A stretch of 63,180 bases of DNA from contig CAZJFS010000006.1 of assembly GCA_964545075.1 (NCBI GenBank), forward strand, positions 1-63,180, given 5' to 3'. The notes below the pieces were generated by a model. That model was not told where the DNA came from, did no database searches, and saw only the letters and a list, made by a program, of their open reading frames with translations. The translations under genes were made by a program, and so were the position numbers. This document shows, in pieces, positions 2,355 through 46,414 of this stretch. Position 1 is the stretch's first letter, and each line of letters starts with the position of its first letter. This stretch comes from an uncultured bacterium. GTDB taxonomy: Bacteria > Muiribacteriota > UBA9980.

Positions 2355-3887
2355 TTATAACTCTTTTGAACGCTGGAGAGGGAATAATATTACATCGCGT
2401 ATAGACTGCGAATCGGTTAAAAGCATTACAAGCCTGTCCATGCCTATGCCGAGACCGCCCGTAGGAGGCATGCCATATTCAAGAGCAGTGATATAATCGT
2501 CATCCATTTCATTTATATCTTCATCCGTTCTGTTTTTCTTGTCAAGCTGGCTCTTGAAACGCGAATACTGTTCCTGAGGATCGTTTAATTCCGAGAACGC
2601 ATTGGCCATTTCACGGCCGTATATGAAAAGCTCGAACCTTTCAACTTCGCGAGCTTCGTTTCCACGCTTGTTTTTGGCCAGAGGCGACACTTCTATCGGA
2701 TAGTCCTTTATGAAGGTCGGCTGAATAAGATGTTCCTCGGCCTTCATTTCAAAGAGCATATTTATCATTTCGCCGTGCGAGGTATTAGCGTTGACGTCGT
2801 TTCCCTCTTTTTTCAGAATTTCTCTTACTTTCGCTTCATCCTCGAGGTCGGCGGGAGCGATATTCGCATATTTAGATATAGCTTCCTTCATCGTAAGTCT
2901 GGCCCAGGGGCGCTGAAACGATATTTCAGTGCCATTGTAAGTTATGGTTTCTTTCTGGTTTATGGCCATGTTGGTTTCCGATATCAGTTCTTCGGTGAGA
3001 TCCATCATGTCGTTGTAATCGGCGTAGGCCATATAAAGCTCCATAAGCGTAAATTCAGGATTGTGCTTTATGGAAATGCCCTCGTTTCTGAAAACCCGGC
3101 CTATTTCATAAACACGCTCAAATCCTCCGACCATAAGCCTTTTCAAATATAATTCAGGCGCTATCCTCATATAAAGTTTCATCTGAAGAGTGTTATGAAA
3201 CGTCTCGAACGGCCTCGCCGCGGCTCCGCCGTATATGGATTGAAGCACGGGGGTCTCGACCTCGATGAATTCTTTTTTATCCAGCAATTCTCGGATCTTA
3301 TTGATTATTCTGGACCTTTTTATAAAAACGCGCCTTGAATCGTCGTTCATCATAAGATCGAGATAGCGCTGCCTGTATCTGGTTTCAACGTCCGTTAACC
3401 CGTGCCATTTTTCCGGAAGAGGGCGCTGGATCTTGCTTAAAAGTTCGAATTCCTTTGCCAATATCGTCAACTCGCCCGTCTTGGTTTTAAAAACCGGCCC
3501 GCTAACGCCTATGAAATCGCCGACTCTGACGAGCTTCGTAAGCTCGTATTTTTCGTCGGGCGTTATTTCGCCTTTTTTAATATAGAACTGAATCTTCCCT
3601 GAATCATCCATTATATGGCCGAACGTCGATTTGCCGTGTTCGCGCCATGAGACCACGCGGCCGGCCAGGGCATATTTTGATTCCTCTAAAACCGTTCCAA
3701 CCGCGATATCGGCGTGAGCGGCTATAACTTTTTCTATTTTACAATCTTTTTTATAAGAATATTGATAAGGAGTAAAGCCTTTCGCGCGAACGTCTTCGAC
3801 GAGCGATTTCATCGCCGTTATTATTTCATTCTCATCCTTCGGCTGTTCAGGCTGATGCTGGGGATTTTTAGTTTGATCTGTGGTCAT
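2355..3887 (-). CDS. lysS: Lysine--tRNA ligase (class II)
   Basis: [53 protein letters not shown] motifs. Confidence 0.98.
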
Positions 3888-4015
3888 TTTTTTAAGTTCT
3901 CCTTCGGTGAAAAAATAATATTTTTGAAAAAAACAATATTCATCCGTTTGAAAAAATTTTTTTTGGAAAATAATTATTGTTTAGTCATTTATTTTATATT
4001 AATCCGCTTTGTTTG

Positions 4016-4846
4016 TCAATAAGTTTTCAATGTTATTGATATTATATCAGGCCGGCAGAAAAAGCGAACCGGCGGAGTAACGCAACCGACGCCGTTACTT
4101 ATCAGAAGTTTCATGCCGCCGCATTGCACCGTTCCCGAACGGTATTTCTGGCCATAGGCTGAAGGTATAACGGGAGAGTAAAGTCCGAAAACGCTCACCT
4201 GTCCGCCGTGAGTGTGGCCACTGAGCATAAGGTCCGTTTTTTGATAATAAGGGCTTATTTTTTCCGCGTAATCCGGATTATGCGAAACAAGAATAACAAA
4301 ATCGGTATCGGATACGTCCGAGAGCGACCCGTTTATTTCCTGCGTATCCTCCCAGAGATCTCCGACTCCGACCAGTTTTATTTTCTGATTGTCCACGCCA
4401 ACCCATACGGAACCGTTTTCAATAAGTTTTATTCCGGCCTCTACCATGGCTTTCTTCGAAAGTTCCGCGCCGTCCCAATGATCGTGATTTCCACGGACGC
4501 CGAATACGCCGAGAGGCGCTTTGAGATTCTTAAGTTCATCCATGCACGGTTTTATATATCTGCTTCCGCCATGGACATAGTCGCCGCCTAAAAGCACTAT
4601 GTCCGGTTTAAGCCCGTTCACTTTTTCAACCAGGCTCCGCACCCTGCCGATCGAAAAATGAGGGCCGTGATGTATATCCGATATGAAAACAATCTTTTTC
4701 CCGTTAAAAGCGACTGGAATTTGAACGCTTTTAATATCAGTTTCCCACACGGATAAAAAAAATGGTTCAAGATAGAGATGAGCCATCAGGTATAAAATAA
4801 ATACGAACATTATAAGAACCGCCCTTTTAATTTTATTTAACTTCAT
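4016..4846 (-). CDS. Membrane-anchored metallophosphoesterase (YkuE-like)
   Basis: SDIHH, GGDYV, GNHD, SHNPD, GHTHGGQ motifs; likely start is ATG 4846 (MKLNKIK) followed by a TM helix. Confidence 0.9.
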   Translation of the reverse strand: MKLNKIKRAVLIMFVFILYLMAHLYLEPFFLSVWETDIKSVQIPVAFNGKKIVFISDIHHGPHFSIGRVRSLVEKVNGLKPDIVLLGGDYVHGGSRYIKPCMDELKNLKAPLGVFGVRGNHDHWDGAELSKKAMVEAGIKLIENGSVWVGVDNQKIKLVGVGDLWEDTQEINGSLSDVSDTDFVILVSHNPDYAEKISPYYQKTDLMLSGHTHGGQVSVFGLYSPVIPSAYGQKYRSGTVQCGGMKLLISNGVGCVTPPVRFFCRPDIISITLKTY

Positions 4847-5083
4847 TATTAATTCGCCTTTCCCGATAGCGGAGCCCGCCAAATAAGATTCCCGATAGTG
4901 ATAAATCAAAAAATTTGAATATACCGGAAAGCGCCATTGAACAACTAAAAAACTATAGGAAATATGATTATCGCCACGCGCTGATGCAAGCAAAAATAAT
5001 AATAAAACAGGACTGTTTCAAAAATAATTTTGGGGGACAGCCCTGTTCAAGCTATTTAGTTTATATGGCATAAAACTTTAAGT

Positions 5084-5593
5084 TTATACTTTTTTATTCT
5101 TTTCATTCTGGATTATGAACATCTCGCCGATGGCTAAAAGCCTGGCCTGAATAAAAGTGGGTTTCTCGCTTATAACTTCCTCGAATTCATCCGTGGCTGC
5201 GTCGATGTTACCCGACTTCAAATGGACGAGCCCCATATAATATCTGGCGGCGGGGTGTTTTGAATCGACCTTCATCGCCCGCTCCAGAGCGCTTCTGGCG
5301 TCCTCCACTTTTTCGGTCTTGTAATAAGCGTATCCGAGCATTATAGCCGGAACGGGATTTATCGAAGACGCGTTTTCAGCGGCGGTCTTAAGGTATTCGA
5401 TCGATTCTTCAAATCGTTTTAATTCAAAAAGTGCCTGCGAAAGACTCAAAAGCGAGGTTTCATCCTTGGGCGACGAAACGACGGCTTCCTTCAATTCAGA
5501 AACCGCTTCCTCAAAGCGTTTTTCCTCTAAAAAACGCATTCCTTTGCTCTTATGAGAAGCCTCACCAAACAACGCCTTTAAAAAACCGAACAT
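5084..5593 (-). CDS. Tetratricopeptide repeat protein
   Basis: Repeated TPR helices (LSLSQALFELKRFEESIEYL; LGYAYYKTEKVEDARSAL; YYMGLVHLKSGNIDAA). Confidence 0.85.
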   Translation of the reverse strand: MFGFLKALFGEASHKSKGMRFLEEKRFEEAVSELKEAVVSSPKDETSLLSLSQALFELKRFEESIEYLKTAAENASSINPVPAIMLGYAYYKTEKVEDARSALERAMKVDSKHPAARYYMGLVHLKSGNIDAATDEFEEVISEKPTFIQARLLAIGEMFIIQNEKNKKV

Positions 5594-6361
5594 CTATTCA
5601 TCAACATCTTTCATATATTTCATTGGATCTACCGATTCGGGCTCGCCCTTGTCCTGATTGAGGCTTCTTATTTCAAAATAAACCCGGGACGATGCTTTTT
5701 CACCGGAAACAGCCAGTTTCTGGCCGTTTTTAATATTATCGCCCTTCTTGACGAGATTTTTTTTGTTGTTTCCATATATCGAGAACATTCCGTCGAGATG
5801 GTCCACTATTATAAGGTTCCCATAACCCTTCATCTGGCCCGCGAATACTACCTCGCCGGCGCTTATCGATTTCACGGAGCTGTTCGGAGCGGTCTTTATG
5901 AATATGCCTTTCGATTCCGGCGAAAATTTAGAGACTACTTTTCCTTTTACCGGCCAATCGAATTTCTGGGATTTAGACCTGGCTGCCCCGTCCTTGGATT
6001 TAACGGCCTTCATATAATTTTCGCGGCGCGCGTTCAAGACGGTGGGCGAACCCGGAATAAATATGCTGGCGCCCTTTTTAAGGGAATGGTTCTCTGAAAT
6101 ATTGTTGTATTTTTTCAAAGCGGCGATAGATATTCCGTATATGTCCTTGAGCTTCGAAAGCGATTCGTCAGGCGCCACTATATGAGTTATGCCGTCAACT
6201 CCAGGATTTCCGACGATCCGTTCCTCCGTCCGCACCGGCTCCTTCAATACGGCGCGTGAATCGTCACCGCCGTTTCTCTTGCACCCGGAACCGGCCGTAA
6301 GCATGAGCGAGCATATCAAAATTAAAATTATCTTATTCATTACGTTGTGTTTCATCGTCAC
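5594..6361 (-). CDS. LysM + M23 peptidase lipoprotein (NlpD-like)
   Basis: Lipobox-like TAGSGC; LysM (HIVAPDESLSKL..YGISIAALKKYNNI); M23-type FDWPVKGKVV, GYGNLIIVDH, SIYGNN (zinc ligands look degenerate, as in NlpD/EnvC activators). Confidence 0.8.
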   Translation of the reverse strand: MTMKHNVMNKIILILICSLMLTAGSGCKRNGGDDSRAVLKEPVRTEERIVGNPGVDGITHIVAPDESLSKLKDIYGISIAALKKYNNISENHSLKKGASIFIPGSPTVLNARRENYMKAVKSKDGAARSKSQKFDWPVKGKVVSKFSPESKGIFIKTAPNSSVKSISAGEVVFAGQMKGYGNLIIVDHLDGMFSIYGNNKKNLVKKGDNIKNGQKLAVSGEKASSRVYFEIRSLNQDKGEPESVDPMKYMKDVDE

Positions 6362-34187: not shown

Positions 34188-34934
34188 TTATTTAGCTCTC
34201 TTGGCTTTTTTCAGGCTTTTATATGTCGGCTTCGCCTTCGGATCAGCGTTAGCGTTTGAGTCGCCCTTGTATTTCGAAGGATCTATAAATTTCATCGGAT
34301 CTACGGTTTTTTTATTCGCGTCAAGAACCTCAAAATGAAGATGCGCGCCGGTGCTCATACCGGTGTTTCCTGATTTCGTCCCGGCTATGGGTTTCCCGCG
34401 CTCCACTTTTGTTCCGACCGGCGCCCTCTTTGAAAGATGAGCGTATCTCGAATAATATACCTTTCCGTTTATGTTGTGCATGACGAGTATCGTATTTCCA
34501 TATCCGCGCTGCGTCTCGGATGAAACGACAATTCCGTCCCCGATGGCGTACATGGCTGTTCCGGAAGGAACGCTAATATCTATTCCGGTATGAAATTTTC
34601 TCGTTTTTTTAACGGGGTGTATTCTCCAGCCGAATGAACTCGTAACTCTGCCATTTCCCGGATATACGCCGCCGAATTTTTCGTCGCCGCCTGAAACTTC
34701 CGTTTCGCTCGTACCGGCCGCAACCTTTGAAGCCGTTTGATCCGAGATGCCCGCCTGAACTTCGGAACCTGAGTTCGCGGCTTGATCGTTCCGAGCGGCA
34801 CTTGAAACGCTGCCATTTTCAAGCTGATTTCCAAGGCCCTGTATTCCGCCGGTTTCTTCGGCTAAAAGAACGACATTGGAAGAAAACAACGCCGCTATAA
34901 GAAATAAAGAAATAGCAATATTTTTTCTTCGCAT
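34188..34934 (-). CDS. Secreted M23 family peptidase
   Basis: VTSSFGWRIHP..FHTGIDI, GYGNTILVMH, SRYAHLS, SGNTGMSTGAHLHFEV; start ATG 34934 with signal peptide. Confidence 0.93.
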   Translation of the reverse strand: MRRKNIAISLFLIAALFSSNVVLLAEETGGIQGLGNQLENGSVSSAARNDQAANSGSEVQAGISDQTASKVAAGTSETEVSGGDEKFGGVYPGNGRVTSSFGWRIHPVKKTRKFHTGIDISVPSGTAMYAIGDGIVVSSETQRGYGNTILVMHNINGKVYYSRYAHLSKRAPVGTKVERGKPIAGTKSGNTGMSTGAHLHFEVLDANKKTVDPMKFIDPSKYKGDSNANADPKAKPTYKSLKKAKRAK

Positions 34935-35064
34935 AAAAATTCCCCTTTCTTTATATAAAAATTTAATATCAGTTAAAATAAAAACAATAAATTTTTTAAA
35001 GGCGTACACGCCTTTTTTATATTATACTAAATATAAATTAAAAATGTTTCAAAAAATAAAATTT

Positions 35065-36081
35065 TTATAAAAATTTATAGAATTCATCCGGCTTAAGCTC
35101 GGCCAGTCGCTTATTTTCAAACAAAAATTTTCTTATATCAACGCAAAGATGACATTTCCCCGCATATCCTTTTTTCAGTTCGGCGTATCCGTATTTTGAG
35201 GCGTAATTAAACAACCCTCTGACGCCCTCATTGAGCAGCGCTTTGATCACGGGCTTTTCGCTTATGTCTATCTCTTCGCCGATTTCCCCGTATGAGCAAG
35301 GGGCGATCCCGGCGCAAAGCCCGCCCGGCATATAATTTCCGTAGCAGTCAATGTGAAAATGGGCCGTTCCGAGCAGTTCCCGTTCGCAATCGGTTATGAA
35401 AAATTCCCTGGCGCCGCGCATCTTATAAAGGGGCGGATCCATATATCCGGCCCTGCCGCCGGGAATGAGATAATAAAGATCGGCTATGGCTCTTATAGCT
35501 TCCGCCGGAAGGCTTTTGATTTTAACGGGCCGTTTCTTATCGAACGGTTCGAAAAAACTTTCAAATTCGCTTATCCATACGAACGCGCCGCCGTACCCGA
35601 AAACTTCCCGGACAAGGCTTATAGCGCCCATAGTGGTTTCCGGCGTTATAAATTCCGCGTGAAAAGGCGAAACGGAGATAAGCACGCTTCTTAACCCGGC
35701 GTCATAAAATTTTTGAAGGATCGGCCTGTATTTCCCGGGATTTCTTCCCCAGAACCCGTTCGTTTCGACGTAGGAAACGCGCACGCCATGATTTTTCGCC
35801 GCGCCCAGGGCCGATAAAACGCAGTCCGGGTTTAAAAACGCCTCGCCGCCGCCGATATGCATCTCGGCATCCGGCCCCGCTTTTTTAATGACGCCAAAAA
35901 CATCGTCCAGTTCGGCCGGCGTAAGCCAGCGATTTTCGCGTTTCGGCGAACCGCATATGAGGCAATGGCCGCATGAATTAGTACATCTGTAGGATAAAAT
36001 AACGCCGCCGCCCTGAAGCTCGCCTATTGTAAGCTTATCCGGACGGCGGGTTTTTCTGAAAAAATTAAGATTTATTCCCAT
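35065..36081 (-). CDS. Radical SAM protein
   Basis: YRCTNSCGHC (CxxxCxxC), HIGGGEAF, ETNGFW, ISVSPFH. Confidence 0.88.
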   Translation of the reverse strand: MGINLNFFRKTRRPDKLTIGELQGGGVILSYRCTNSCGHCLICGSPKRENRWLTPAELDDVFGVIKKAGPDAEMHIGGGEAFLNPDCVLSALGAAKNHGVRVSYVETNGFWGRNPGKYRPILQKFYDAGLRSVLISVSPFHAEFITPETTMGAISLVREVFGYGGAFVWISEFESFFEPFDKKRPVKIKSLPAEAIRAIADLYYLIPGGRAGYMDPPLYKMRGAREFFITDCERELLGTAHFHIDCYGNYMPGGLCAGIAPCSYGEIGEEIDISEKPVIKALLNEGVRGLFNYASKYGYAELKKGYAGKCHLCVDIRKFLFENKRLAELKPDEFYKFL

Positions 36082-36095
36082 AACAAGCGCGTCTT

Positions 36096-37319
36096 TTACA
36101 TGTCGCCGGAATCGCCGGACATGCTTGAAACGTCGAAGTATTCGTTGGTCTCGACCTCGCGTTTTTCATAGTAGAATTTTTTGTAGAGCAATACGAGCGA
36201 GTATATTATACCGAGCGGAATCGCCACGAAATAAACCGCGTAGTTCAATAAAGAGATCAGATAGTATGCGGGATTTGAAAAATCTCCGCCGACGGATGCC
36301 GCCCACGGAAGCGTAAACGCGGGCGTAGGCGCGAAAGCGTTCATGTTCCAGATTATTATGGCGATCGAAAGATAATTGACGAAAATATTCGGAAAAGTGG
36401 ACGCCGATGTAGTCCACTGGAGGCCCTGAGAGCGGCCTTTGGTAAACGGATAAAAAAGGTTCGAACCGAGATGTCCCGTCTGATCGACGAAAACATGCGA
36501 TAACATCGCGAAGATGCCCATGAAAAAAGCCGATATCGAAAGCGGCGTAAAAAGCCCCATGAAATTTCCCTTGAAAAGTTCGCTCCAAGGAGCGTATATC
36601 GCGAAAGCGAGAGGGCCGGTTATCACGCCGAGCGTGATGCTGTGAGACCACTGGCGATGCCAGGGGATAAAATCGATCTTTACCTTGCCGTTATCATATT
36701 CAAAGGCGAAGTCCGGGCCGGAGAATATCCCGACCTCGGTATCCTGATAATATGTGTTATTTATCTCGGCGTTAAATTTCGCCGTGTAATAATTATTTTC
36801 CGTCGGCCTGGTTTCAGGCATGCCGGGCAGATGATCGATGAGTTTTTCAAGCGTCTTGGGAACGCCCATTTCGGTTATCGATTTCTGCATCGTTTCATAG
36901 GACGGCAGATAATCAAGTTTTTCCATTACCTGGCTCATGGTTTTTATGGAGCCGATCATAACCGTTACCTCTTTACGCTTATCATCCACGAAAAGGTTGA
37001 ATGTCCTGTAATGGCTGGCGGAAAGCCTTATTATATCGATTTTAAGATAGACGACTTTTTTTTCACTGTAAGCCTGTTCAAGCGCTTTTACATATCCTTC
37101 GGCGATATATTTGGCGTCGAGGTTATCCTCGTTTATTCTCAGGACATAGTCGTGCTTCCAGAAATAGCGGGCGAAACGGAAATCGAGCGTATCGCAGCAG
37201 ACGCCGAAAACGCCGCCGAACGGAAGGAAAAAAGATTTGTTCGCGAAAACCGAATGCATTCCAGCCGGAAAGCACGAAGCGGTCGCTACCCCTGTTAAAA
37301 AGTGGGTGATACCTTTCAT
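36096..37319 (-). CDS. YdjM-like membrane metal-dependent hydrolase with large insertion
   Basis: KGITHFL, DTLD, HRQWSHS, SHVFVDQ..G..LFYPF; start 37319 after GGGGAG RBS. Confidence 0.75.
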   Translation of the reverse strand: MKGITHFLTGVATASCFPAGMHSVFANKSFFLPFGGVFGVCCDTLDFRFARYFWKHDYVLRINEDNLDAKYIAEGYVKALEQAYSEKKVVYLKIDIIRLSASHYRTFNLFVDDKRKEVTVMIGSIKTMSQVMEKLDYLPSYETMQKSITEMGVPKTLEKLIDHLPGMPETRPTENNYYTAKFNAEINNTYYQDTEVGIFSGPDFAFEYDNGKVKIDFIPWHRQWSHSITLGVITGPLAFAIYAPWSELFKGNFMGLFTPLSISAFFMGIFAMLSHVFVDQTGHLGSNLFYPFTKGRSQGLQWTTSASTFPNIFVNYLSIAIIIWNMNAFAPTPAFTLPWAASVGGDFSNPAYYLISLLNYAVYFVAIPLGIIYSLVLLYKKFYYEKREVETNEYFDVSSMSGDSGDM

Positions 37320-37653
37320 GATCGGACACTCCCCTTTTATTTTTAATGATTTTAAAAATTCCATTATATTATAAAGCATATGAGCGTTATTTTCAAGTCA
37401 AAATTAAAATAAAAAAATGGATTTATCGCCTTATAATATGTTATAATTTTTTTGTTTTTGCGACCTTATGGCGCCGCGGCATCTTAACTAAAGCGTCGGC
37501 ATTAGCCGTTCAAACGGTTTCAAGCCCGGGAGCGCCCGATCAAAAACCGCGTATATGGTTCAAAAACGCAGAAAAATCGCAAAAAAATTCAATTATAAGC
37601 CTCTCGCGCGGTTTTAAAACGAAAGGGCGTTCGATTAAGAAAGGATTGAAAAA

Positions 37654-39609
37654 ATGTCAGCATACGAACAATATTACAAAGAATCTCTATCTTTAAAAAA
37701 AGAGCTTATTTCGTCGCACGAAGGCCTTTTGAAAACATTTGAAAAAGACCTTGAAATTTTCAGTAAGAAAGACTCGCTGTACGCCAATCTCAGGCTGGTT
37801 TTCTTCCTCGGCGTAATTGCCTGCCTTTTATCCATAGTAACCTCGGGAGACGTCGCCGGCGCCCGCCTGACGGCATCTTATATCTTTCTCGCGATTTTCA
37901 TAATCTCATTTTCCGTTCTGATACATTGCCACGATCAAATAATATCTCTTCTCGAAAAAGCCAGAGCCAGGGTAGTTTTAAAACGTGAACAGCTTTCGCG
38001 CGTAAGGGATACCGAAAGGCCCGTTCCGGGAGTGCGCGACAGCATGGTGCACGAAACGGTCAGCCATGAATTTCTCGACGGCACCTTCGGCCTTTCGAAC
38101 AACCCTTCGCGGTTCGAGATGAAGGAACACATAATAAACGATCTCGACCTTTTCGAAGGCGAAAAGAACGTTTTCGGGCTTTACTGCACGGCCCAGACGG
38201 CGCCGGGAAAGCAAAGGCTTTATCAGTGCCTCAAATCCCCCTTCATGGACGTTAAAACCATAAGGGAGCGCCAGGCGGCGGTCATGGAACTTTTCGGGGA
38301 CGCCGGTTTCATTGAAACGGCCGAAGTCGCCGCCTTTCCCATGAGAAACACGAGATTTTCAGAATATATGAACGCGGTGACGGCCCCTGACATCCTTCCA
38401 CATAACGTTATTTTCCGTTATTTCATAATGGCCATGGCATTTCTGCCCGCCATTTCTATTTTAACCGGAAAATATGAGATTTTCGCGTGGCTTTATTTCA
38501 TAAATGTTTTTGTCATCGGGTTCTCTTTTGAAAAATGCGCCGTGATCAAAAAGAACTATTCATCGCTCGCGCTTTTCGGCCGGTGTTTTTTCAACCTGGC
38601 AAATATATTTTCCGGGAAAAAATTTGAAAGCCCGGTTTTGACAGCTATAGCCTCGAAGTTCCAGGGCGCTCCCGACGGCGGAGCTTCCGACGGCTTTTTC
38701 GTAAAAAAACTCGGTGAAATATCCAGGACCGCCGCGATATTGCAGTTCCCGCTTCCGATCATGCTCGACGCCGTTTTTCTCTTTGACATCAACATGTGCG
38801 AACGGGTGGAACGAAAGGTCGGCCGCTTCAGATCGGCGCTTTTGAACCTCGTTCCCGCCATGGCGGAATTCGAGGCCCTTTCCTCTTTCTCAAACATCAA
38901 GCTCGACCAGCCCGAATACCGTTTCGCGAAGATCGACGATTCGCCGGATCCCACGCTTGAATTTTCATGCCTCGCGCACCCTTTCATTGATTTTGAAAAA
39001 GCCGTGGCGAACTCCATATCGTTTAACGACGACTGCGACATCGCGATCATCACCGGCTCCAACATGTCAGGAAAATCAACGTTCTTAAAAGCAGTCTCGC
39101 TCGCCGCCGTCCTCTCGGCCGCGGGCGCCCCGGTGCGCGCGATGAGCGCGAGCCTCACTCCCGTGAGGATAATCACCGATATCCGCGTCAGCGATTCCAT
39201 AACGCTCGGCATAAGCCACTTTTACTCGGAGCTTTTAAGGGTCAAGATGGTCACCGACGAGCTCATGAAGGGAAAGATGGTCCTGGGCATTTTCGACGAA
39301 TTGTTCCACGGCACCAACAGCCGCGAAAGGCTGGCGCTCTGCCGCGCGACGCTCGAATATCTCAAAAACAGCGGCGGCCGTTTCATCGTCGCCACTCACG
39401 ACCGCGAGCTGACAGCTACGGCGTCTAACGTTTCAGGCGCCGCGATAAAAAATTATCACTTCGAGGAAAAGATAACCGGCGTCGAAAGCATCTTTACTTA
39501 CAAGCTTATCGACGGCCCGTCGAACGTGACCAACGCCATAACGCTCGCCCAGAAGTGCGGCCTGCCTGAAAAAATATATAAACGCGCGAGAGAGCTCGCG
39601 GGAGAATAG
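37654..39609 (+). CDS. Membrane-anchored MutS-family ATPase (domain V, no mismatch-recognition domain)
   Basis: TM helices; ITGSNMSGKST, DSITLGISHFYSEL, FDELFHGTNS, ATHD, NYHF. Confidence 0.88.
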   Translation: MSAYEQYYKESLSLKKELISSHEGLLKTFEKDLEIFSKKDSLYANLRLVFFLGVIACLLSIVTSGDVAGARLTASYIFLAIFIISFSVLIHCHDQIISLLEKARARVVLKREQLSRVRDTERPVPGVRDSMVHETVSHEFLDGTFGLSNNPSRFEMKEHIINDLDLFEGEKNVFGLYCTAQTAPGKQRLYQCLKSPFMDVKTIRERQAAVMELFGDAGFIETAEVAAFPMRNTRFSEYMNAVTAPDILPHNVIFRYFIMAMAFLPAISILTGKYEIFAWLYFINVFVIGFSFEKCAVIKKNYSSLALFGRCFFNLANIFSGKKFESPVLTAIASKFQGAPDGGASDGFFVKKLGEISRTAAILQFPLPIMLDAVFLFDINMCERVERKVGRFRSALLNLVPAMAEFEALSSFSNIKLDQPEYRFAKIDDSPDPTLEFSCLAHPFIDFEKAVANSISFNDDCDIAIITGSNMSGKSTFLKAVSLAAVLSAAGAPVRAMSASLTPVRIITDIRVSDSITLGISHFYSELLRVKMVTDELMKGKMVLGIFDELFHGTNSRERLALCRATLEYLKNSGGRFIVATHDRELTATASNVSGAAIKNYHFEEKITGVESIFTYKLIDGPSNVTNAITLAQKCGLPEKIYKRARELAGE

Positions 39610-39616
39610 GCCGGCG

Positions 39617-39686
39617 GAGAACGAAAAGCGAAGAACGAAGTAAAGAGTAAAGAGTTGAGAACGGCAAGTTGAGAGTGAAGAATTAA
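39617..39686 (+). repeat. Degenerate heptamer tandem repeat (~10 units)
   Basis: gagaacg aaaagcg aagaacg aagtaaa gagtaaa gagttga gaacggc aagttga gagtgaa gaattaa. Confidence 0.55.
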
Positions 39687-40924
39687 TGAAAGGAATGTTC
39701 ATGAAAATTTTTATTAAAGCTTTTATATTGATCGCGGTTTCGCTTTTCGTTTATTACCCGGACGCGCTATCCGGCGCCGAAAATAAGATGGGCGGCCCCT
39801 GGACGCAGGAGGCCTATTTCGAGAACATGGGCGCCTCGACCGCCGCCGAAGCCATGAAATATTTCGACCGCGCGCACGAACTTCGCATAAAAGATGAAAA
39901 AATATGGTTTAAGATAGGCTGCCTTCTCGAATCATTCGATAAAAACAACGAAGCGCGTTTCTGCTACGACAGGCTCATCGAAGAAGATATCGACGATGTC
40001 CGCGCCATGTTCATCCGCGCCTACAACCTGAACCGGAAATTCAAAGAGCACAAATGGTCTGATTTTTCGGATGCCGCTAAACCGTACCTCGCCCGCGCCA
40101 TAAAACGCGAGCTTTTAAATATCAAGGATACGGAAAGAAAAATGCGTGCGAGAAACCGTATCTCGGCAAAAACTTCGAACGAAACATATTACCAGAAACA
40201 TGAAAATTGCTCACCCGGAAACAGAAAACTGATTTATAAATACGACACCGGCGAAAACTTAATATCCGTTGAAGTTTTCGATCCCGTTGAAAAATTCGTT
40301 TCCAGAACCAGATATAGTTACGACGCGGACGGCTTCCCGGTCGAAGAAACATTGTCGGATCCCGACGATCGCGTTATAAGCCTTATGAAATACCAGCGCG
40401 GTTGCGATCAATTCCAGCTCCCGCAATATGAAGTATGCGTCGACGGCCAGGGCAAAACGCAGTGGAAGTCGGAATATATTTTCAAGATCCACGACCAGAT
40501 GGTCGAATTCTTCGAAAAACGCTACGACGCGGCCAAAAATCTTCTGGGCGAATATCAGTGCATGTACGATAACCTCGGATATCCAGTATACATTGCCATT
40601 ACGGACGATCAGGGCGTCGCCTCCATTTCCTACGACAAAAAATATCACCGCGTCGACAAGGTGATATTTTACAAGCATGACGGAATAATGGTCCGCCACG
40701 GCCATTTTTACGAATACGACGACTTCGGCAACGTCGTGAAAAAAGCGGTAAAAACGCCGGAAATAGACGTCGGAGCGCCGTTTAAGCACGAAATAGTCCA
40801 TAATATCGGCGAATATAAATACAGGTACGACCCTTATGGAAACCTTATCGAAGAAGTTTATTTCGACAAAAAAAGCGACGCCGTATATAAAAAAGAATTC
40901 ACTTACGAATATCATTTAAAATAG
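39686..40924 (+). CDS. Secreted protein with TPR-like N-terminus and YD-like repeats
   Basis: Signal peptide; YKYDTGEN, YSYDADGFPVEE, MYDNLGYP, YEYDDFGNVV, YRYDPYGNLIEE. Confidence 0.7.
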   Translation: MKGMFMKIFIKAFILIAVSLFVYYPDALSGAENKMGGPWTQEAYFENMGASTAAEAMKYFDRAHELRIKDEKIWFKIGCLLESFDKNNEARFCYDRLIEEDIDDVRAMFIRAYNLNRKFKEHKWSDFSDAAKPYLARAIKRELLNIKDTERKMRARNRISAKTSNETYYQKHENCSPGNRKLIYKYDTGENLISVEVFDPVEKFVSRTRYSYDADGFPVEETLSDPDDRVISLMKYQRGCDQFQLPQYEVCVDGQGKTQWKSEYIFKIHDQMVEFFEKRYDAAKNLLGEYQCMYDNLGYPVYIAITDDQGVASISYDKKYHRVDKVIFYKHDGIMVRHGHFYEYDDFGNVVKKAVKTPEIDVGAPFKHEIVHNIGEYKYRYDPYGNLIEEVYFDKKSDAVYKKEFTYEYHLK

Positions 40925-41760: not shown

Positions 41761-42582
41761 TCAAGCTTGCGTATTCAAAAGAGAAGAGTATTGAGACTGT
41801 TGATTATACTGTGTAAACGAACTGCTTGCCTGCCGGTAAGCGTTCATAACCTGCTGAAGGAAGTTGTTTTTTATCTGTTCGCTGGCGGCATTGGTATTAT
41901 TGGCATCCGCCGTTTTTTCCTTATAATCGTCTATGCCGTTATTGTTTTTATCCAGATTTTCCAGATTGTCTGGGATGCCATTATTGTTTAAATCCTCGGA
42001 CTCTTCGCTTGTCGCGGTTCCGCCGCCCGATGCGCCGCCGCTCGGGGGAGGCCCTCCGGCTGGAGCCGTTCCGCCGGCCTGACTTGTTTTTGTTGATTCA
42101 AACGCCGCATTTTCATCTTTAGTTATCGATCCATCGCCATTCGTATCGATCTTAGCGAACATTTCGTCGGCATTCATGGAATTGCCGGTTTTTTTGTTCA
42201 TCTCGTCGGTAAAAGCGCTGAATTCGGTTTTATCGATAGTTCCGTCGCCGCTTGTATCGATCTTGCTGAAAATATCTTCGGGTCTGACGGCCGAGCTCTT
42301 ATACTCGCTCATCTTTTGAATCTTGGCTTTAAACGCCGCATCTTCATCCTGAGTGATTGAATTATCGCCATTTGCATCTATCGCTGAAAACAATTTTTCG
42401 GAATCAACCGTCTTGCCGGTTTTTTGAGATAATTTATCAGTGAATGACTTTAACTCGTCTTTACTGACTTCTCCGCTGCCATCAGTGTCGATCTTGGCAA
42501 ACTTTTTTTGATTTTGCTGCTGCAGCAGGGCCATTATATCGTAACCGCCGCCGCCGCTAACGCCGCTTATCATAAGCATCAC
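41761..42582 (-). CDS. Four-EF-hand calcium-binding protein
   Basis: DTDGSGEVSKDE, DANGDNSITQDE, DTSGDGTIDKTE, DTNGDGSITKDE; extra DxNNNG motifs. Confidence 0.9.
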   Translation of the reverse strand: MMLMISGVSGGGGYDIMALLQQQNQKKFAKIDTDGSGEVSKDELKSFTDKLSQKTGKTVDSEKLFSAIDANGDNSITQDEDAAFKAKIQKMSEYKSSAVRPEDIFSKIDTSGDGTIDKTEFSAFTDEMNKKTGNSMNADEMFAKIDTNGDGSITKDENAAFESTKTSQAGGTAPAGGPPPSGGASGGGTATSEESEDLNNNGIPDNLENLDKNNNGIDDYKEKTADANNTNAASEQIKNNFLQQVMNAYRQASSSFTQYNQQSQYSSLLNTQA

Positions 42583-42780
42583 CCCTTTCCTCTGGTTTTT
42601 TGCCGCTTAATACATATAGTTATAGCTTACATTATAGCATCGGAAAAAAACGAGGAAAGCCAAATATTTATTTAAACCTGTTTTCAGGCATTATCTGTTT
42701 TATTCGCTCTTTTTCTTTATTTTTTACCCCGAACGCACTGCTTTTAAAAAACAATTTAAAATATTTAATTAAAATTTAAA

Positions 42781-42816
42781 ATAAAAATCGTCCCTGCTAC
42801 GGAACGATTTTTATTT
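42781..42816 (-). terminator. Intrinsic terminator after the TctA-like gene
   Basis: ATAAAAATCGT..ACGATTTTTAT inverted repeat. Confidence 0.65.
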
Positions 42817-42855: not shown

Positions 42856-44202
42856 TTAATAAAAGCCGAAGAATCTGGCGACAGCCGGCCCGATACCCGC
42901 CATATTAAACGATATCGGAACCATAAGGACCGCGAGAAGGTTCAGGCGGCGCGAATGCCAAAAATTAGGAACCAGGCCGAGGGCCGTCGAAACGGCGAGC
43001 AATACAAGACCCTGCCAGCTGCATATCCAGGCGGTAAGGCCGACGAGTATAACGCAACCCGCCATGGAGAAATATTTATAATCGATGGCTTCCACGAGAT
43101 GGGCGCAAACCTTTGAGAACCAGCCCGAGAGAAGGAAGGATACCGCGCCCGTAAGAGCGATAACGCCCGATATCATATAAAACTGTTCGGCTGTTTCAGG
43201 AACGAAGAAAAGGCTTATGTTTATGGCCGCGCCGCCCCTTCTCATGAATACGCCGGGCATGAAGAACAATAAGAGCGCGCCGACGTAATAAATTATACGC
43301 CCCACGCCGCCGCCTATTAAAAACTGTCTTTCGCCGGATGTGACGGTGAGATGGCCGGTGAGTAAAAGCGCCGGGCCGGGTGTCATACCCGGGATAACGG
43401 CCGCGAACATTCCGGCGAGAAAACCCGAGGCGCCGCCGCGCATAACGTCGTGAGGAGCGCATTCGACTGATTCGCATATATGCTGTTTCGGGATGTTTAT
43501 CTTCGTTATGATCGTCATTATCTGCGACGGCACTGCGAAAAGTCCTACGAAAAGAGGCATAAGCGATTGAAATGAATTTTCGACCGGGATAATGGTGTTA
43601 AAGAACACGAACATACCGAGTATTCCGGAGATTATGAAAGTGAAATAGCCCATGGAAAGTTGAACCCAGCCATCCATAAACCTCTGCCAGCCGGTCTTTC
43701 CAACGCCGTGATCCTTGGGCCATTCGGTCATCAATATAAAAGCCATGACAAGTCCGACTATCCAGTAAACGTGAGGTTGAGTCAGCCTTCGTATAAGAGC
43801 GAAGACCGACGGAAAAATTGGAAACAGAAGCGTTATTATCATTATGGCTATAAGGCTTCCGAAAGCGCTTATCATTACCGCTTCGTGAGCGCGGCCTTCC
43901 AGCAGGAAGCGCTCATGCGGGAGCATTATACTTCTGAAGCTGTCGTCATTAGGCTGCATATATTGTGAAGAAATCGTGAAAAGCATCGAAAAGCTAACGA
44001 CCATGCCTATCATGAAGCTGGTCAGAACGAGCGGATGAAGCGTGGCGAAAAGATCGGCCGCTGTAAAGGAGAACAACATCGTTATCGCTATTACGTTATA
44101 TATGTGAAGCCCGGGAATGAGCGAAGCTAAAAGCGAAATTAAAACTCCGACAAGGGCCGCTATGGATGAATATATTATTAAACTTAATTCCATTTCTCTC
44201 AA
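42856..44202 (-). CDS. TctA/DUF112-family multi-pass permease (short, archaeal-like type)
   Basis: LIPGLHIYN, LPHERFLLEGRAHEAV..SAFGS, PLFVGLFAVP, AVIPGMTP; about 12 TM segments. Confidence 0.75.
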   Translation of the reverse strand: MREMELSLIIYSSIAALVGVLISLLASLIPGLHIYNVIAITMLFSFTAADLFATLHPLVLTSFMIGMVVSFSMLFTISSQYMQPNDDSFRSIMLPHERFLLEGRAHEAVMISAFGSLIAIMIITLLFPIFPSVFALIRRLTQPHVYWIVGLVMAFILMTEWPKDHGVGKTGWQRFMDGWVQLSMGYFTFIISGILGMFVFFNTIIPVENSFQSLMPLFVGLFAVPSQIMTIITKINIPKQHICESVECAPHDVMRGGASGFLAGMFAAVIPGMTPGPALLLTGHLTVTSGERQFLIGGGVGRIIYYVGALLLFFMPGVFMRRGGAAINISLFFVPETAEQFYMISGVIALTGAVSFLLSGWFSKVCAHLVEAIDYKYFSMAGCVILVGLTAWICSWQGLVLLAVSTALGLVPNFWHSRRLNLLAVLMVPISFNMAGIGPAVARFFGFY

Positions 44203-44209
44203 TTCCTCC

Positions 44210-45091
44210 TTATTTAATGATTACTACGGCGTTCGGATCGTCTTCCGAGACCTTGATCTCCCAGCGTTCGCCGCGGTCGTAATACAGAAAGCGCCCGCTT
44301 ATGGACACGTTCTGGTTATCCGAAAAAGCCTGCGGGTCGGCTCCGAATATCATGAGAGTTCTCTGCTGGCCAGGATCCGCAGCCTCCATAATGAATTTCT
44401 TGGCCCTTTTAAGTATAACGGCTTTTTTAACCGAAACGACTTTTTCCTTATATTTATCGGGGTTATCGAGTAATTCGGTTATCGTCGCTTCGACCGCGGC
44501 GTCTTCCGAAGATCTTCCGACGACCTTCAAAAATTCCGCGCCGGCGAGACTTAAAGTCCTATAACCTTTTCCGGCGTAAAGCGACGCCGATGCCTCGACT
44601 ATGTCGCCTACCTTTGGAACGATATTTTTATTTTTCATCTCGGCCGCGATCTCGCCTTCCGCTTTAAGTTTTATAACCGAATCGCCTTCTTCGCTTTCTT
44701 TTTCGGACTTATCCATAAGTTCGAACTGAAGCGTGGGGCGTTTTTTATATTTATCGTTGAATTCGCTTACGCGCTTGACCTGCGCTAAAACCCTCACATG
44801 TTGGAAGTTTTTGGTTTCATTAAGCGACGAGATTATATCGTATTGAGGTTTATACGCCGCAGCTATCGCGAAATACATTAAAGCCGCCAGAAAAAGTACG
44901 ATCGTCGACATATTTATACTTTTAACGCGGATGCGCTCATCGACTGACGTAAGAGTGCTGCAGTATGTGCAACGCTTTATCATTCCTATCTGGCGTCCAC
45001 AGCTGGGGCAGAATCCGGGGTTGGCCATTTTCAGACTGTCTTCGGCGATAGTTTCAAAATAATTTTTATCTAAGCTCTTTTTATCTTCCAA
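44210..45091 (-). CDS. Zn-ribbon + TM + two OB-fold domains
   Basis: CPSCG..CTYC; TM; HVRVLAQVKRV..FELMD..PKVGDIVEASASL; second OB NVSISGRFLYY. Confidence 0.7.
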   Translation of the reverse strand: MEDKKSLDKNYFETIAEDSLKMANPGFCPSCGRQIGMIKRCTYCSTLTSVDERIRVKSINMSTIVLFLAALMYFAIAAAYKPQYDIISSLNETKNFQHVRVLAQVKRVSEFNDKYKKRPTLQFELMDKSEKESEEGDSVIKLKAEGEIAAEMKNKNIVPKVGDIVEASASLYAGKGYRTLSLAGAEFLKVVGRSSEDAAVEATITELLDNPDKYKEKVVSVKKAVILKRAKKFIMEAADPGQQRTLMIFGADPQAFSDNQNVSISGRFLYYDRGERWEIKVSEDDPNAVVIIK

Positions 45092-45109
45092 TTTATTTCA
45101 ACCCCTTCG

Positions 45110-45997
45110 TTAAATATTGTCGGTTTTGACGGTGGCTTCGTCCGTCTTGACTATGGCCTGAGTTTCAGGGATAACGATGACGGGGAACGCGCTTCCCTTT
45201 TTGCCGCGCCAGTCGACCGCTCCGGTTATGGTAACCAGATCTCCTGCTTTAGGACGTTCCTTCCATTCTTCGGGGTTTTCCTTAACGAGTTTATTTATTT
45301 GAAGCACGCTTAAAGGTATCGACGCCGTGACGGTTCCCGAAGCCATGTCGTCTATCGTTATATTCGTCTCGTACCTGCCGTCGGAAACATCGGATATGCG
45401 GCCTGAAACTTTAACGCGTTCGCCTTTTTTCAAATTCTCAGGCGTCTGGTTCGTGAAATTTTTCAAAGGCGTCGCCTTGGCCGGGACCGTTCTTTCGATA
45501 TCTATTCCATAGGCGGAACCCAGTATGAGCATTCCGCCCTTTCCTTTGTGCTGAAAACTGGCTCTGAGTTTGATTTTATCGCCAAGACAGGGGATCTTTT
45601 TAGAGTCTACGAGTTCGCGCGTGGCGTCGTCATAACAACGCACGAGCATAAGGGCGGAGTTGTCGTCGATCTCAAATTCCATCGAACCGCCGCTTTCTTC
45701 GCCCTTATCCGTCGCGGCATAATATTTAACGGGGCCGTTTACGGCGGCTTTTACGGTTATCTGAGCGAAATTGCTTCTCCTGGAAAGCGAATCAAGCTTT
45801 ACCTCCGGATTTCCATAGTGAACGCCTATATATTGAAGCACGAAAAGCCCCAACACGGCGACAACCGGAGACAGATATTTCAACAGCCGGACCGAGGTCC
45901 TTTTAGGGTTGAACGTTCTGCAAAAATGGCAAACTTCGCAGGCTCCGATGTAGCGGCCGCAGCTTTTGCAGTGCGTTTCAATAAAATTCTGGGGCAT
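45110..45997 (-). CDS. Zn-ribbon + TM + two OB-fold domains (paralog of neighbour)
   Basis: CKSCG..CHFC; TM; QITVKAAV..FEIDD..GDKIKLRA; GERVKVSGRI..PKAGDLVTITGAV. Possible ATT start at 46030. Confidence 0.72.
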   Translation of the reverse strand: MPQNFIETHCKSCGRYIGACEVCHFCRTFNPKRTSVRLLKYLSPVVAVLGLFVLQYIGVHYGNPEVKLDSLSRRSNFAQITVKAAVNGPVKYYAATDKGEESGGSMEFEIDDNSALMLVRCYDDATRELVDSKKIPCLGDKIKLRASFQHKGKGGMLILGSAYGIDIERTVPAKATPLKNFTNQTPENLKKGERVKVSGRISDVSDGRYETNITIDDMASGTVTASIPLSVLQINKLVKENPEEWKERPKAGDLVTITGAVDWRGKKGSAFPVIVIPETQAIVKTDEATVKTDNI

Positions 45998-46145
45998 GAT
46001 GACCTGTTCGATTTCAGGTTTTAGTTTAATGGCGGGCCTCCTGATTCTTTATGTAATAAATATTATTATCTTATAATTCAGGCAGTAACATGGCGGGCGG
46101 GAAATAAAACATGAAATATGAGCGTTTGTTAGTTTTTTGCTAATG

Positions 46146-46174
46146 ATTATATCAAAAATGTTAATGAGTGTCAA
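46146..46174 (-). promoter_or_regulatory. Consensus sigma70 promoter of the OB-fold/TctA operon
   Basis: Minus strand TTGACA-17-TATAAT with TG extension. Confidence 0.8.
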
Positions 46175-46203: not shown

Positions 46204-46232
46204 TTTACATAATTGATTTTATATGATATAAT
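46204..46232 (+). promoter_or_regulatory. sigma70 promoter of the tRNA gene
   Basis: TTTACA-17-TATAAT with TG extension, 16 nt upstream of the tRNA. Confidence 0.75.
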
Positions 46233-46248
46233 TAACAAGTCAACAAAA

Positions 46249-46332
46249 GTCGGAGTGGCGGAATTGGCAGACGCGCTAGATTCAGGTTCTAGTGGCCTTG
46301 TGCTCGTGCGGGTTCAAGTCCCGCCTTCGACA
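46249..46332 (+). tRNA. tRNA-Leu (anticodon CAG), CCA not encoded
   Basis: Acceptor GTCGGAG/CTTCGAC, D-loop TGGCGGAATTGGCAGAC, anticodon arm CTAGA-TTCAGGT-TCTAG, long variable arm, GGTTCAAGTCC. Confidence 0.97.
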
Positions 46333-46338
46333 TTACGG

Positions 46339-46367
46339 AAAAGCTCCTCGCAAGAGGGGTTTTTTTG
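46339..46367 (+). terminator. Intrinsic terminator after tRNA
   Basis: AAAAGCTCCTC-GCAA-GAGGGGTTTTTTT. Confidence 0.85.
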
Positions 46368-46414
46368 TTTTTCATCGCATATTTTTTTAGCGATAAGCAG
46401 ATATTGTTGAGCGT

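Follow-up and report, generated by a model that had tools for sequence, protein, structure and literature searches.

Paired Zn-ribbon/OB-fold proteins and a short TctA-like membrane protein form a conserved bacterial module that is related to an archaeal natural transformation pair and is a candidate for nucleic-acid uptake

The window analyzed here is a stretch of 63,180 nucleotides of contig CAZJFS010000006.1 from an uncultured bacterium (GenBank assembly GCA_964545075.1), whose genome is a 4.9-Mb metagenome-assembled genome that is 93.7% complete. It carries a minus-strand operon that encodes two paralogous OB-fold membrane proteins, which we call OB-A and OB-B, followed by a short TctA-like polytopic membrane protein; the closest homologues are named Candidatus Wallbacteria. 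We are highly confident that these genes represent a genuine, deeply conserved membrane module that is homologous to the OB/TctA-like pair of archaea. With respect to its function, the hypothesis that we rate highest is that it captures and imports nucleic acid, and we consider the chances that this is correct to be evenly balanced. For the passage of DNA across the archaeal membrane, no candidate other than the OB/TctA-like pair has been published, and the support for that pair is genetic.

Three minus-strand open reading frames occupy positions 42856-45997 of the window, between a predicted sigma-70 promoter and a terminator. The first encodes OB-A (45110-45997, 295 amino acids), an A-type protein with a Zn ribbon, a transmembrane (TM) helix and two predicted extracytoplasmic OB folds, and the second encodes its B-type paralogue OB-B (44210-45091, 293 amino acids), which has the same architecture of a ribbon and one TM helix. 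The third gene, at 42856-44193, encodes the TctA-like protein of family PF01970 (445 amino acids). Its open reading frame spans 42856-44202 on the minus strand, and the true start is probably the ATG at 44193, because a GGAGG sequence lies 11 nt upstream of it and because 445 amino acids is the length of almost all of the close homologues. The genes are separated by gaps of only 18 nt and 16 nt. The minus-strand promoter of the operon (46146-46174) has the form TTGACA-17-TATAAT with an extended TG and matches at 12 of 12 positions, and the three-gene unit ends in an intrinsic terminator (42779-42816, minus strand) that consists of a 16-pair hairpin and a T-run. Approximately 140 nt of leader separate the promoter from the start of OB-A; an Rfam search of this leader matched only the neighboring tRNA-Leu and revealed no riboswitch. 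The gene for that tRNA, tRNA-Leu(CAG), is located at 46249-46332 on the plus strand and is divergent from the operon, with its own promoter (46204-46232, 11 of 12 positions) and terminator (46335-46368), such that the two promoters stand back to back within approximately 60 bp.

The cysteines of the ribbon follow the pattern CxxC-x9-CxxC and are located at C10, C13, C23 and C26 in OB-A and at C28, C31, C41 and C44 in OB-B. All four are invariant among 26 homologues, and so are two basic residues, R33 and K40, where the helix begins. OB-A and OB-B share 26% identity over 155 amino acids (E = 6e-10), indicating that they are paralogues. A confident AlphaFold model of OB-A made with 26 homologues (predicted local distance difference test score [pLDDT] 87.8, predicted template modeling score [pTM] 0.74) consists of the ribbon at residues 1-30, a long helix at approximately residues 34-61, and five-stranded OB beta-barrels in tandem at residues 79-168 and 194-284. 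Both the Zn ribbon and a basic, K/R-rich stretch precede the TM helix and, following the positive-inside rule, we predict from this arrangement that the N terminus is cytoplasmic and that the OB domains face outward, which is the outcome of the topology check that a preliminary description of this DNA had proposed.

At the sequence level, OB-A scores 23.7 bits against the nucleic-acid-binding OB-fold family PF01336 of Pfam, which is below the cut-off of 27, and a precomputed PF01336 match is present in nine of 11 close homologues. A search of PDB sequences with an OB-A profile gave non-significant matches only, and NCBIfam contains no match for OB-A, OB-B or the TctA-like protein. When the OB-A model was compared with the PDB using Foldseek, the 50 best matches listed were mostly tandem-OB DNA binders, with E values from 3e-9 to 2e-6 for Teb1, RPA70, POT1, HIN and SSB proteins. 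These include Teb1 AB (3e-9) and single-stranded DNA (ssDNA)-bound RPA70 DBD-A/B (2e-8), together with Pyrococcus abyssi RPA, POT1, TEBP-alpha, HIN-200 domains and two-OB single-stranded DNA-binding proteins. The TM-scores of these matches are low because the two barrels are oriented differently with respect to each other. Solved tandem-OB structures are, moreover, biased toward DNA binders, and the Foldseek result therefore indicates a fold class and not a ligand.

The TctA-like protein matches the TctA family PF01970 with 89 bits against a cut-off of 28.9. Hydropathy analysis reveals 11 hydrophobic segments, and the protein contains the subfamily-specific motifs PGLHIYNV and TEWPK. By these sequence comparisons it is a member of a divergent subfamily of PF01970, one that has no NCBIfam match. 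Its predicted structure is all-helical and likewise confident (pLDDT 85.7, pTM 0.86), and searches by sequence and by fold produced no significant match to a solved structure (best fold E 0.05). A genome-wide search identified this as the single TctA gene, and neither TctC (PF03401) nor TctB (PF07331) has a match anywhere in the 93.7%-complete genome. The features on which the preliminary description was built have therefore stood: a three-gene unit with a perfect promoter and a terminator, upstream genes that both encode a CxxC-x9-CxxC ribbon, one TM helix and two OB-like domains, and the lack of TctB and TctC, which is now borne out genome-wide. Its count of three genes is right for the operon but overlooks a YdjM-like hydrolase gene that the family normally adds.

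The gene pairing is widely conserved. We surveyed 80 named genome loci with relatives of the TctA-like protein, from Wallbacteria, Verrucomicrobiota (including Kiritimatiellales), Lentisphaerota, Myxococcales, Planctomycetota, Chloroflexota (Anaerolineae and Thermoflexia), Spirochaetes, Thermoplasmatota and unclassified archaea. A hidden Markov model (HMM) of the OB family identified one or two OB genes directly upstream of the TctA-like gene and on the same strand in 69 of these loci, and found no OB gene in 10 loci despite ample upstream flank. The neighborhood survey that the preliminary description had called for thus finds the OB-gene linkage to be conserved. In the clade nearest to the window, and likewise in four loci from archaea, OB genes come in twos without exception. 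By reciprocal HMMs, the leading gene is A-type and the second B-type everywhere, archaea included; OB-B of the window, for example, scores 337 bits against the B-type HMM and 41 against the A-type HMM. Judged by these profiles, the duplication of the OB gene is old and the order A-B-TctA has been maintained, as would be expected for a hetero-oligomer. The OB family is found in 26 of the 29 high-quality genomes of the phylum to which the window belongs, and a profile of the window-type TctA protein retrieves 1875 clusters at 50% identity, 516 of them with E <= 1e-30. Pairing with OB genes is frequent and not universal, as illustrated by a Methanocellales archaeon (L084) in which a lone TctA-like gene for 434 amino acids lies between genes for an aminotransferase and an MC1 chromatin protein, with no OB or YdjM-like neighbor.

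The ectodomain lengths of the OB proteins are stepped, at approximately 115, 240, 410 and 520-650 residues, which is consistent with arrays of approximately one to six OB modules. Among the 150 representatives listed, three are fusions of OB and TctA-like sequences (P0136, P0215 and P0236); in P0136 the TctA-like domain is attached to an OB ectodomain (E = 6e-39), and in P0215 to a ribbon/TM segment. These fusions support a physical association of the two proteins, and individual cases may be artifacts of frameshifts or gene calling. If genuine, all three would imply that the N terminus of the TctA-like protein and the OB domains share one side of the membrane. The ribbon-then-TM arrangement is present in 81 of 103 OB proteins. 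In combining an N-terminal Zn-binding element with one TM helix and an external domain, this layout is reminiscent of single-pass signaling proteins, and the module could accordingly be a transmembrane sensor in which the outward OB domains detect a ligand and the cytoplasmic Zn ribbons relay the signal, in the manner of single-pass anti-sigma factors. We consider this highly improbable: the ribbon comprises only some 20 residues and is missing in the other 22 of the 103 family members, the module has no conserved sigma factor or other regulator beside it, and the obligatory partner is a polytopic protein of a transporter family, to which OB proteins are in some cases fused.

Functional evidence that bears on nucleic-acid import comes from archaea only. 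In Methanococcus maripaludis JJ, transposon hits in MMJJ_13020, which encodes an OB-fold protein with one TM helix, and its in-frame deletion are described as abolishing natural transformation (Fonseca et al. 2023, PMC10133366). The same account reports that in-frame deletion of MMJJ_13030, whose product is TctA-like and has 11 TM helices, abolishes transformation too, that both deletions were complemented in trans, and that the TctA-like homologue of Methanoculleus thermophilus is likewise essential for transformation (PMC10133366). Since archaea lack ComEC, these authors proposed the TctA-like protein as the DNA transporter of archaea (PMC10133366). The idea of an OB/TctA-like uptake system is therefore not new, having already been raised for archaea in that study, and with these genetics the view in the preliminary description that short TctA homologues are uncharacterized no longer holds entirely. 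Our literature search found no later paper that follows up on this work.

Several comparisons connect the window to this archaeal pair. The profile of the window-type TctA protein reaches an archaeal-type clade of proteins of approximately 400 amino acids, whose named members come from Thermococci, Woesearchaeota, Hydrothermarchaeales and Halobacteria, at 165-215 bits. On a metagenome contig of a Thermococci archaeon (locus L086), the gene for a 197-amino-acid protein with a TM helix and two OB folds runs across the start of its TctA-like neighbor, and the protein matches the OB HMM, which was built from bacterial-type proteins, with 27 bits (E = 9e-11). We also examined 80 archaeal-type metagenome loci, 65 of which have enough upstream DNA; in 30 of these 65, a TM+OB protein of approximately 115 amino acids that matches the OB HMM ends at the start of the TctA-like gene. 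The C terminus of MMJJ_13030, as read from the complementation primer ML1-30, is TILYFLKI and fits the C-terminal consensus of the clade, LPVILYFL. The primer ML1-31 has no exact match in the metagenome contigs, the primer-derived MMJJ termini occur in no protein retrieved here, and no Methanococcus was present among the homologues from either the representative search or the Thermococci-seeded search. Profile comparison places the OB and TctA-like proteins of the window in the wider families that also contain the minimal pair of archaea. Judged from the clade profiles and the primer-derived C terminus, the pair of M. maripaludis very probably belongs to this minimal clade.

A further partner in the surveyed loci is a YdjM-like gene, whose product starts with MKG(I/L)THF. 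It directly follows the TctA-like gene in 32 loci, and the flank contains it in 46 of the 80. In the window, a putative YdjM-like membrane hydrolase of 407 amino acids is encoded at 36096-37319 on the minus strand, 5.5 kb downstream of the operon, and is preceded by a promoter-like site (37368-37396, minus strand; TTGAAA-17-TATAAT, 11 of 12 positions). An HMM of the module-linked YdjM-like genes gives 490 bits to this gene, which is the sole copy in the genome, and its product scores 37.9 bits against PF04307 with a cut-off of 29. YdjM/DUF457 proteins are inner-membrane proteins, and ydjM of E. coli is regulated by LexA. In the nearest relatives of the window (L002, L004 and L023), the TctA-like gene is followed by a gene for a DsbD_2-type four-cysteine membrane protein and then by selB, with no YdjM-like gene there. 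Gene order at this end of the module has thus been reshuffled in the Wallbacteria subclade. In eight other loci, from Anaerolineae and one Thermoplasmatota archaeon (L028, L034, L044, L054, L066, L069, L071 and L075), a gene for a secreted protein of 600-1100 amino acids with Lamin-tail domains (LTD) and phospholipase D-like (PLD-like, Nuc-type) domains starts within a few bases of the stop codon of the YdjM-like gene. This is a lineage-specific fifth module gene. As a hint of nuclease activity it is suggestive at most, because PLDc_2 covers both nucleases and phospholipases. Across the 80 loci, only the OB, TctA-like and YdjM-like genes are broadly conserved as partners; the other recurrent neighbors are ABC, Mla, kinase and GNAT genes of a generic kind, in patterns that differ between lineages.

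Taken together with the archaeal genetics, these observations suggest how a nucleic-acid importer of this type might be built. OB-A and OB-B would be distinct subunits, each with one TM anchor, with the small Zn ribbon in the cytoplasm and the tandem OB array outside. They would capture extracytoplasmic nucleic acid, which could be DNA or possibly RNA or oligonucleotides, and pass it to the 11-TM TctA-like protein, which would serve as a conduit or as an energized transporter. The YdjM-like membrane metal-hydrolase might process the substrate, for instance by degrading one strand. Such a set of OB, TctA-like and YdjM-like proteins would echo the OB, channel and nuclease domains of ComEC. We infer for the bacterial module a function of the same kind as that of the archaeal pair, and for each subunit the role given above. 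The proposal in the preliminary description that the OB proteins act as outward-facing nucleic-acid receptors is strengthened by the predicted topology, by the DNA-binder fold class and by the archaeal genetics, while binding and transport by the bacterial proteins themselves are predictions.

A number of observations weigh against nucleic-acid import. The genome encodes a full-length ComEC, in the form of a 790-amino-acid open frame with PF03772 on another contig (C26) that is the sole PF03772 match in the genome, and it encodes DprA as well. ComEC is present in 35 of 39 bacterial module-bearing genomes and in none of the four archaeal ones. A complementary distribution of ComEC and the module is rejected by the 35 bacterial carriers, so in bacteria the module is no replacement for ComEC, and there is no obvious need for another DNA importer. 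If the module does move nucleic acid, then it would do so in parallel with ComEC or on another substrate. Furthermore, the OB ectodomains are near-neutral, with isoelectric points of 7.9 and 7.2, and are not strongly basic; the model of the TctA-like protein has no solved-structure match that would show a DNA-wide channel; and TctA-family proteins of known function move small carboxylates. Added to these points are the rarity of pilus genes beside the module and the possibility of an indirect archaeal phenotype, which are taken up below.

The module might instead be a secondary transporter whose small solute could be, for instance, a carboxylate, a nucleotide, a nucleoside or a metal chelate, with the tethered OB proteins replacing TctC and TctB as a receptor or scaffold. 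The TctA-like protein is a member of PF01970, characterized tripartite tricarboxylate transporter (TTT) systems carry carboxylates (Winnen et al. 2003, as cited in PMC10133366), the OB ectodomains are not basic, and ComEC already provides DNA import in the same genomes. On the other hand, the nearest folds of the OB pair are DNA binders and not sugar- or metal-binding OB folds, the arrays of four to six OB folds in some lineages (ectodomains of 400-650 amino acids) fit a polymer better, nuclease-like LTD+PLD partners occur in eight loci, and the archaeal relatives show a transformation phenotype in the study cited above (PMC10133366). We therefore regard a small-solute carrier as unlikely, and as the foremost of the alternatives to nucleic-acid import. 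Were it nevertheless correct, tethered OB folds would constitute a new type of receptor in the TTT superfamily and the archaeal phenotype would need a new reading.

The archaeal phenotype also bears on the possibility that the module is an envelope or surface-structure factor that might, for instance, export or remodel a polymer at the surface or on a lipid carrier, or assist the function of type IV pili, with an indirect link to transformation. The discussion in PMC10133366 reports no piliation check of the mutants, and the transformation defect could be indirect in this sense. The Thermococci locus L086 contains, within positions 2540-6236, genes for an A24 prepilin peptidase and a 55-amino-acid, pilin-like protein with a class-III signal peptide, followed by the genes for the 197-amino-acid TM+2xOB protein and a 411-amino-acid TctA-like protein, so a prepilin peptidase and a pilin-like gene adjoin the pair in this one archaeal locus. 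The frequent YdjM-like membrane hydrolase partner would also be compatible with work on the envelope, as would the Mla-type lipid-transport genes that lie upstream in some Verrucomicrobiota loci. Linkage to pili is rare, however: a BLAST search over 160 loci found no prepilin peptidase beyond L086 and L087, and we reject a general pilus linkage. The only broadly conserved partners are the three gene families named above, and tandem OB arrays that resemble DNA binders have no evident role in envelope synthesis. An envelope function thus seems quite unlikely to us, less probable than a small-solute carrier.

Returning to nucleic-acid import, a broader version of it can be put forward tentatively. 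OB-A, OB-B, the TctA-like protein and the YdjM-like protein could together form a ComEC-independent nucleic-acid translocon common to bacteria and archaea. In bacteria that possess ComEC as well, its substrate would be another one, for instance RNA, oligonucleotides or DNA used as food, and in the present, Wallbacteria-like organism it could feed a deoxyribose-phosphate microcompartment encoded approximately 27 kb away. We consider this extended proposal rather doubtful.

In the window, four genes lie between the operon and the YdjM-like gene. Directly past the operon terminator, a 273-amino-acid protein with at least three EF-hand calcium-binding motifs is encoded at 41761-42582 on the minus strand; its tail is rich in Gly, Pro and Ser and also in Asn. 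The others are a small open reading frame and two plus-strand genes, one (39686-40924) for a 412-amino-acid protein with RHS/YD repeats and an N-terminal hydrophobic, signal-like segment, and one (37654-39609) for a 651-amino-acid protein that has MutS domains III and V only (PF00488, 105 bits), with no mismatch-binding domain and with a hydrophobic N-terminal region. On the far side, the YdjM-like gene is followed on the same strand by a radical-SAM gene (35065-36081) and a gene for an M23 peptidase (34188-35009), possibly as one transcription unit. The preliminary description saw a fit between the operon and the deoB/deoC microcompartment, apt and add genes elsewhere in the window; none of these recurs within 6 kb in the 80 loci, and a conserved tie to them is rejected. 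A role in defense was likewise rejected, as PADLOC gave no match for any of the four proteins of the module.

The bacterial module has consequences beyond this genome. A larger relative of the archaeal pair is widespread in at least seven bacterial phyla, offering material for biochemistry and structure work, and it suggests a second, ComEC-independent route for nucleic acid in bacteria. It is marked by an invariant A/B pair, by Zn ribbons predicted to be cytoplasmic, by OB::TctA fusions and by a recurrent membrane hydrolase.

Comparison with known systems places the module more precisely. With TctABC, which takes up citrate in Salmonella, it shares a large membrane subunit of PF01970. It differs in that the genome of the window lacks TctB and TctC, in that the TctA-like protein is shorter, with approximately 11 and not 12 TM helices, and carries the motifs PGLHIYNV and TEWPK, and in that its partners are OB-fold proteins. 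The fourth gene passes the Pfam threshold for YdjM/DUF457, the putative metal-dependent hydrolases of PF04307, but its product is much longer, with 407 amino acids and an insertion of approximately 150-200, and the subgroup to which it belongs shows synteny with OB and TctA-like genes. ComEC consists of an N-terminal OB fold, the polytopic competence domain PF03772 and a C-terminal metallo-beta-lactamase nuclease. The two systems may thus follow a common logic of OB fold, polytopic membrane component and metal hydrolase, by analogy only. There is no sequence relationship (PF01970 and not PF03772), and the parts are separate polypeptides in the window. The closest likeness is to the pair MMJJ_13020 and MMJJ_13030, in which, as in the window, a gene for a single-pass protein with an outward OB fold is directly upstream of a short TctA-family gene for approximately 11 TM helices, without TctB or TctC. 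Here the host is a bacterium, and two paralogous OB subunits stand in place of a single one. The OB proteins of the window have an N-terminal Zn ribbon and two OB folds, whereas the archaeal-type partners have approximately 115-200 amino acids, one or two OB folds and no ribbon, and the TctA-like protein has 445 amino acids compared with approximately 400 in the archaeal type. In addition, the family to which the module of the window belongs has a YdjM-like partner and coexists with ComEC. The bacterial variant, with its two Zn-ribbon subunits, larger TctA-like protein and YdjM-like partner, is new.

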